DNA of 458 nucleotides. Source: Escherichia coli. GTDB lineage: Bacteria; Pseudomonadota; Gammaproteobacteria; Enterobacterales; Enterobacteriaceae. A program made the translations under genes and the position numbers. Below, piece by piece: positions 1 to 458 of the stretch. How positions within the stretch are numbered: position 1 is the stretch's first letter; every line of letters begins with the position of its first letter. The notes under the pieces are model-generated. The model was given only the letters and a program-made list of their open reading frames with translations. It ran no database searches and had not been told where the DNA came from. The stretch lies in assembly GCF_003334255.1 (NCBI RefSeq), contig NZ_QOWU01000235.1; one strand, written 5' to 3'.

Positions 1-458
1 CTTCCCAGCTGGCTGTCAGGTTTTGGTGTACCAAACGGCATGTTCTCCTGGTAAATCTGCGCCCCCATGAAGTTTTCATTCATGGCAAGGTTCGCAAACG
101 GACGCAGAATGGTCGGTGCTGCGTTTTTCAGCAATGCCCCCGACAACGTTTCCGACGTCTCGCTGCCGATCGGGCTGAATGCCCCCAGGATACCGCCGAC
201 AACATTACCGGCAGCACGTGAAGCAGTCAGGTCGCCCGCTGCCACACCTTCAGCTGTATGACCAAGCAGGAAGAACACGTTGTACCCGTAAGGCAGAGGA
301 ATACTCCAGTACTCACCGGCCTTGCCCCCGAACATCGATTTCATGATGACGAGGTTACGCTCTTTCACATGAGACGGTACTTTGTCGTACCAGTTAACCC
401 CGTCATCATCCTCACCCGCCACACTGCGGTTAAGCGAGCCAAGCAGATAACCCGCTCC
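1..458 (-). CDS. Partial CDS (internal fragment, both ends outside the window) encoding a Gly/Ala-rich hypothetical protein; family not assignable from sequence alone
   Basis: Seen in sequence: reverse-complement frame starting at nt 458 is open for 152 codons (nt 458..3, with 2 nt of the next codon at 2..1). Translation: GAGYLLGSLNRSVAGEDDDGVNWYDKVPSHVKERNLVIMKSMFGGKAGEYWSIPLPYGYNVFFLLGHTAEGVAAGDLTASRAAGNVVGGILGAFSPIGSETSETLSGALLKNAAPTILRPFANLAMNENFMGAQIYQENMPFGTPKPDSQLG. The other two minus frames reach stops quickly (TGA and TAA within roughly 30 codons of the window's 3' end). A 152-codon stop-free run at about 55% GC is unlikely by chance (roughly (61/64)^152, under 0.1%). Codon usage is enterobacterial-like: CTG is 8 of 15 Leu codons, with CCG, AAC, TAC, TTC and GGT/GGC preferred. 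No start or stop codon lies in the window, so gene boundaries and full length are unknown. Confidence 0.85.

Follow-up and report, generated by a model that had tools for sequence, protein, structure and literature searches.

A 458-nucleotide stretch of Escherichia coli DNA, referred to here in its whole length as the window, is occupied by a Gly/Ala-rich reading frame (Gly + Ala = 37 of 152 residues, 24%) and raises the question of which protein it belongs to and what that part of the protein might do. The preliminary description had left the product unassigned and guessed at a phage structural or mobile-element protein. Six-frame translation showed 152 codons without a stop on the minus strand in frame 0 (window 3–458), with window bases 1–2 forming the start of the next codon, and several stops in each of the five other frames. 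A fully open frame of any kind was found in 249 of 20,000 mononucleotide shuffles (1.2%). The coding assignment is:

Window 3–458, minus strand: internal coding fragment of 152 codons, residues 2456–2607 of a 2,794-aa polyvalent protein (open frame and 100% identity).

The window was 100% identical to positions 15001–15458 of a prophage locus in E. coli SCU-104 (L001), inside a coding sequence at 7636–16020 (HHJ22_RS17470; WP_174147770.1) annotated as a 2,794-aa "LPD38 domain-containing protein", and was also 100% identical in two further E. coli strains. Comparison of the window with 933W L0134 revealed 30 nucleotide differences, which comprised 27 synonymous codons and two conservative replacements (M2497V and I2545V), indicating that the minus-strand frame is under purifying selection. 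Short plus-strand open reading frames at 67–261 and 179–346 were rejected as genes because the differences to 933W were nearly all synonymous in the minus-strand frame. An Rfam search of both strands of the window gave no matches at E up to 1. It is near certain that the window comes from within the polyvalent-protein gene of a 933W-like (Sepvirinae) Stx-type prophage.

Of the 5,426 complete E. coli genomes, 425 had a copy of this gene, in each case under an LPD38 or an LPD5 domain annotation. RefSeq naming was inconsistent between these two labels, as both "LPD38" and "LPD5 domain-containing protein" were applied to genes with 99–100% DNA identity over the window. Among phage records, GER2 showed 100% window identity and 184 other Stx-type phage records showed 92–95% identity, including 933W (L0134), VT2-Sakai, Min27 and P13374, with the window DNA identity to 933W and VT2-Sakai being 93.5%. 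The last ~16 kb of the GER2 record (MG710528.1, 71898–88114; L003) has no annotated feature despite containing the full giant gene. PHROG 616 matched the polyvalent protein over its full length. The gene, its family and its domain are already known, the gene being annotated in RefSeq and the domain in Pfam. In the commonest Stx-converting phages the polyvalent protein gene makes up ~14% of the genome.

In SCU-104 the giant gene closes the late operon of a short-tailed Stx-type prophage and has host yfdC as its neighbour ~222 bp downstream, with mlaA, fadL and others beyond it. Upstream of it are late tail genes, including a tail tip fibre gene, then lom, a hok/gef toxin gene and five small ORFs, and the gene order is the same in 933W and phi24B. 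The Ail/Lom outer-membrane protein gene (L001:3253–3987) and the hok/gef toxin gene (4219–4359) are part of the late operon and separate its tail genes from the small-ORF block that precedes the giant gene. ARAGORN found no tRNA gene at the prophage-host junction (L001:15900–16400, containing the gap to yfdC at 16021–16241). The order of tail fibre, small ORFs, a protein of ~380–510 aa and the giant protein last was common to 933W, phi24B, GP4, Vibrio D80 and a Halomonas prophage. The gene upstream of the giant gene, L0133, has a product of ~420 aa. In the Halomonas elongata prophage (L004:5342–12061) the giant-gene position is taken up by four consecutive ORFs (450, 351, 571 and 686 aa), of which only the last carries LPD38; this can be interpreted as a naturally split version or as a decayed gene.

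The composition of the window had earlier been put at about 55% GC, with GGG in 6 of 21 Gly codons and CTT in 4 of 15 Leu codons, and horizontal acquisition of the gene had been suggested. Our measurement gave 55.5% GC and an identical codon recount. The whole gene had 54.3% GC, in comparison to 49.7% in nine flanking host genes, with GGG/Gly of 0.21 and CTT/Leu of 0.20 in comparison to 0.15 and 0.12 in the same host genes, so that the codon bias is a modest feature of the whole gene. Its place at the end of the late genes in a 933W-like prophage and its departure in composition from the flanking host genes bear out the suggestion of a horizontally acquired phage gene, and a chromosomal housekeeping gene standing apart from mobile-element neighbours was not what the locus contained.

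Several unrelated domains are combined in this one very large polypeptide, and the gene has a late/virion-gene location in SCU-104, 933W and phi24B, both of which are features of the polyvalent proteins of Iyer et al. 2017. Those authors defined polyvalent proteins and the domains LPD1–40, and proposed that such proteins deliver many activities at invasion (PMC5512222). The domains and motifs of the present protein are:

Residues 1051–1200: LPD5 (Pfam).
Residues 1182–1437: CLCA_X-like region (NCBIfam, below its cut-off, outside the window).
Residues 1284–1288, L001:11485–11499: HExxH motif HEWFH, inside the CLCA_X-like region.
Residues 1361–1440: LPD1 (Pfam).
Residues 1551–1555, L001:12286–12300: HExxH motif HEIIH.
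Residues 1750–1839: MuF_C (Pfam).
Residues 2477–2682: LPD38 (PF18857; Pfam E 1.5e-48, 165.8 bits, model positions 2–189 of 189).
Window 3–395, minus strand: start of LPD38, the first 131 of 206 matched residues (2477–2607), mapped from the Pfam match.

The window therefore consists of the first 131 LPD38 residues and 21 residues upstream. CLCA_X was the sole NCBIfam match to the protein, a Pfam search of three overlapping segments found no peptidoglycan hydrolase domain, and PADLOC defence models gave no matches. The phi24B preprint (10.64898/2026.04.10.717836) calls MuF-C the metallopeptidase domain, while Iyer et al. (PMC5512222) describe it as a predicted RNase-like (PBECR) domain; for this latter reason the peptidase candidates are probably the HExxH regions and not MuF-C. 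Two more moderately hydrophobic Gly-rich segments occur near the N-terminus, at residues 179–200 and 404–425 (L001:8170–8235 and 8845–8910), the second of which had weak, non-significant Gly-zipper Pfam matches, and together with a helix at residues 2446–2469 they are the only hydrophobic stretches in the 2,794 residues.

The distribution of these regions among homologues was strongly uneven. The C-terminal 445 residues had 7,421 relatives among 50%-identity cluster representatives, and in 163 of 176 full-coverage matches, many of whose shorter sequences are fragments, the module ended no more than 5 residues from the C-terminus, in proteins of up to 5,181 aa. Residues ~1900–2794 were found in every one of the 112 homologues that reach 1,800 aa, whereas any given part of residues 1–1880 was present in only 0–40% of them, and other giant-protein PHROGs matched residues ~1880–2792 only. 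From this pattern of sharing we infer that the polyvalent protein would be built from a variable N-terminal cargo of ~1,880 residues joined to an invariant C-terminal block of ~900 residues. By tblastn the LPD38 region was found in 335 phage records, and the phages carrying the module included Stx phages, ~100 Vibrio phages, Ralstonia GP4-like phages, Burkholderia Bcep22-like phages and a Bacteroides phage. Plasmid matches were limited to six records, all non-mobilizable, of which five were 50–63 kb and one 212 kb (E. coli EDL933). A restriction of LPD38 to phages is likewise stated by Iyer et al. 2017 (PMC5512222). In Salmonella enterica (P0016, P0027 and P0076) an LPD38 piece is joined to DUF1367, Macro, ORF6N or DUF4043 domains, and these joins may be prophage rearrangements or gene-calling fusions.

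Alignment of 177 sequences identified a series of conserved motifs within the window:

Window 417–458, minus strand: C-terminal half (GAGYLLGSLNRSVA) of a Gly/Ala-rich, moderately hydrophobic helix, residues 2446–2469 (hydropathy and AlphaFold2).
Window 399–413, minus strand: acidic motif EDDDG, residues 2471–2475, directly after the helix (D2472 and D2474 each in 97% of the 177 sequences).
Window 354–362, minus strand: ERN motif, residues 2488–2490, before a predicted beta strand (92–96% conserved; model strand 141–145).
Window 273–299, minus strand: P-L-P-Y-G-Y-N-V-F, residues 2509–2517, the most conserved motif of the window (P2509 and P2511 99%).
Window 171–179, minus strand: F-S-P motif, residues 2549–2551, at a Gly-rich helix end (F2549 97%, P2551 100%).
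Window 99–116, minus strand: P-T-x-x-x-P motif, residues 2570–2575 (P2570 100%, P2575 92%).
Window 63–80, minus strand: N-E-N-F-x-G motif, residues 2582–2587 (N2582 98%, G2587 94%).

Within P-L-P-Y-G-Y-N-V-F, residues Y2512, G2513, Y2514, N2515 and F2517 were 92–98% conserved among the 177 aligned sequences and P160 and P162 of alignment A1 were invariant; K2481, P2483 and G2521 were also highly conserved in the window. The invariant residues of the modelled region (2350–2700) were N, P, G, F, R, T and Q, with His, Cys and Ser missing from this set, a pattern that looks structural and not catalytic. LPD38 is also outside the seven LPDs that Iyer et al. (PMC5512222) flagged as possibly enzymatic.

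An AlphaFold2 model of residues 2350–2700, built with 41 diverse sequences, reached a mean pLDDT of 74.6 and a pTM of 0.52, with block-mean pLDDT across the window varying from 60 to 91. It was mostly helical with a small beta hairpin, and the Gly/Ala-rich helix was placed at model positions 97–120. A Foldseek comparison of the model to the PDB gave no significant match (best E 1.9), and the AFDB50 structure search returned matches to other LPD38 proteins only. A PDB sequence search with the full protein had no matches at E up to 0.01, and one with the family profile returned only noise at E 0.3 or worse (mitoribosomal mS25). The fold predicted for this region is without a relative in the PDB and model confidence was moderate, so that the structure lends no functional support to any role.

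Evidence for the place of the protein in the phage particle comes from its relatives. The phi24B orthologue gp47 (vb_24B_48), a 2,811-aa protein with LPD5, LPD1, LPD38 and MuF-C that is linked to the present protein by this reported domain set and its gene position, was found by proteomics in purified virions of podovirus morphology and was absent from the cryo-EM map, which led the authors to propose that it is an encapsidated ejection protein forming a transperiplasmic conduit (10.64898/2026.04.10.717836). The preliminary description had listed an ejection protein among its options, in agreement with this proposal. JC1 gp69 (4,515 aa, C-terminal LPD38) was represented by 51 unique peptides in mass spectrometry of purified virions, and virion presence thus applies to an orthologue and a relative (phi24B gp47, JC1 gp69) rather than to the exact prophage allele.

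We regard it as reasonably probable that the C-terminal block, including the window, is a structural part for capsid packaging and delivery of the whole protein. In such a mechanism the block would get the protein into the capsid and, when the phage infects, let it leave with the DNA by way of the tail, and the N-terminal ~1,880 residues would be a lineage-specific, exchangeable cargo made up of LPD5, a zincin-like HExxH region, LPD1, a second HExxH and MuF_C. The window itself would act as a scaffold of helices, a small beta hairpin and Pro/Gly/Asn turn motifs and not as a catalytic site, with the moderately hydrophobic helix and EDDDG as a candidate contact for a membrane or another protein. 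As the C-terminal ~900 residues are shared and the N-terminal part varies, the window would lie in a conserved delivery block and not in a swappable effector.

Alternatively, the window may be a membrane-inserting element of a trans-envelope ejection conduit, in which helix 2446–2469 and the low-charge segment after it would, once released from the capsid, insert into the inner membrane and contribute to a DNA channel. No other part of the protein has a charged fraction as low as that of residues 2401–2600 (0.14), where Gly + Ala reach 0.23, and the helix is the sole 19-residue stretch with a Kyte-Doolittle value of at least 1.1 in the C-terminal ~2,300 residues. The most hydrophobic 19-mer falls at the same aligned position in 137 of the 177 sequences, usually with a basic residue before it and the acidic DDDG cluster after it, and the transperiplasmic conduit proposed for gp47 by the phi24B authors (10.64898/2026.04.10.717836) would suit such an element. 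The membrane-associated protein offered as an option in the preliminary description may also hold, as the window begins inside this helix, the most hydrophobic of the C-terminal region. However, the median hydropathy of 1.31 is below the usual transmembrane threshold and the classical value of 1.6 is reached in only 11% of sequences, there is a single such helix in the C-terminal block, and AlphaFold2 shows a folded helix-rich domain, all of which make a DNA channel at this site an unlikely reading. Slightly less likely again is that LPD38 is an effector domain that is injected and then acts on a target in the host, for instance to counter its defences. It lies inside a polyvalent protein, and proteins of this class have been proposed to bring many activities into the host; PHROG 10089 (labelled "DarB-like antirestriction") covers residues 2355–2682, and the polar residues E2363, R2367, D2472, D2474, E2488 and R2489 are conserved. 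Against this, the DarB label stems from methylase/helicase regions of other family members, none of which were found here by Pfam; the module is a constant component at the terminus irrespective of the cargo joined to it, and is absent from conjugative elements; the PADLOC models were without a match; and most of the invariant residues are of turn-forming or structural kinds. A fixed place at the terminus and presence in all homologues are also compatible with a conserved effector on which all of these phages depend.

The tape-measure option of the preliminary description, which has no other support than the abundance of Gly and Ala and the great size of the protein, was refuted by gene context and phage-family morphology and is given almost no probability. 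The carrier phages are short-tailed (Sepvirinae; phi24B is a podovirus), the gene comes after those for the tail fibres, as the last of the late operon, and searches of Pfam, PHROGs and NCBIfam found no match to any tape-measure family. The broader guess of a phage structural or mobile-element protein stood without this option.

The structural reading for packaging and delivery can be extended, tentatively and with more doubt than confidence, to a single widespread delivery module, in which the ~900-residue block would have a fold absent from the PDB and the Gly/Ala helix with EDDDG would enter the inner membrane or dock at the portal to bring interchangeable effector cargo into the cell. If true, this module would be common to thousands of giant podovirus proteins. 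The constant C-terminal position of the block under a variable cargo suggests a general route for loading effectors into capsids. A better understanding of the block could show how Stx phages get into cells and could make it possible to engineer phages that deliver proteins.

The closest known systems are the 933W L0134 and VT2-Sakai orthologues, which have the same domain set (LPD5, LPD1, MuF_C and LPD38) as the present protein. VT2-Sakai and other Stx phages showed 97–98% protein identity over the 351-residue region 2350–2700, and the orthologues of 933W, phi24B and VT2-Sakai are ~2,807–2,811 aa in comparison to 2,794 aa here. In these phages the giant gene is again the last late gene and its differences from the present gene are only allelic; integration beside yfdC is a further point in which the present prophage differs from them.

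More distant are the "DarB-like" proteins JC1 gp69 and GP4 gp68 of Bcep22-like/GP4-like phages, which have a C-terminal LPD38 block like that of the present protein, GP4 showing 28% identity over residues 4–332 of the 351-residue query. JC1 gp69 closes the virion-morphogenesis module of its phage and GP4 gp68 (3,224 aa) is the last gene of the virion module. The N-terminal cargo of JC1 gp69 consists of a lytic transglycosylase, a methylase and a helicase-like region, none of which occur in the Stx-phage protein, whose cargo is instead LPD5, HExxH, LPD1 and MuF_C. Knock-down of PTXU04_00025, a giant protein (2,198 aa) annotated with LPD38 and nothing else, strongly reduces plating, and a putative relative bearing LPD38 is thus needed for efficient infection. 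The preprint on Xanthomonas phage Xacm4-11 does not mention a related giant protein.

"DarB-like" is a database name for relatives of the present protein, and P1 DarB itself is described as a large antirestriction protein carried in the virion. A DarB-type enzyme of this kind was rejected for the present protein, as Pfam found no significant methyltransferase or helicase in three segments (Methyltransf_4 at E 3.4 being noise). All 186 E. coli/Shigella phage records with an LPD38 tblastn match were the same 186 Stx-type records that were found by DNA search, which implies that P1, if it is in the searched collection, would be without a detectable LPD38.

The N4 virion RNA polymerase, gp50, is likewise giant, packaged in a podovirus capsid and injected, and its likeness to the present protein is in the way it works. 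In the summary by Iyer et al. 2017 (PMC5512222), its N-terminal region is assigned to injection and its C-terminal ~1,400 aa to encapsidation, and the latter is described as having a metallopeptidase domain and not LPD38. The need of this C-terminal region for encapsidation makes the N4 polymerase a functional precedent for the block proposed here. T7 gp14/15/16 and P22 gp7/20/16 are ejection (internal core) proteins. The role proposed for the present protein is the same as that of these T7 and P22 proteins, which are capsid-internal, are released through the tail and bridge the cell envelope.
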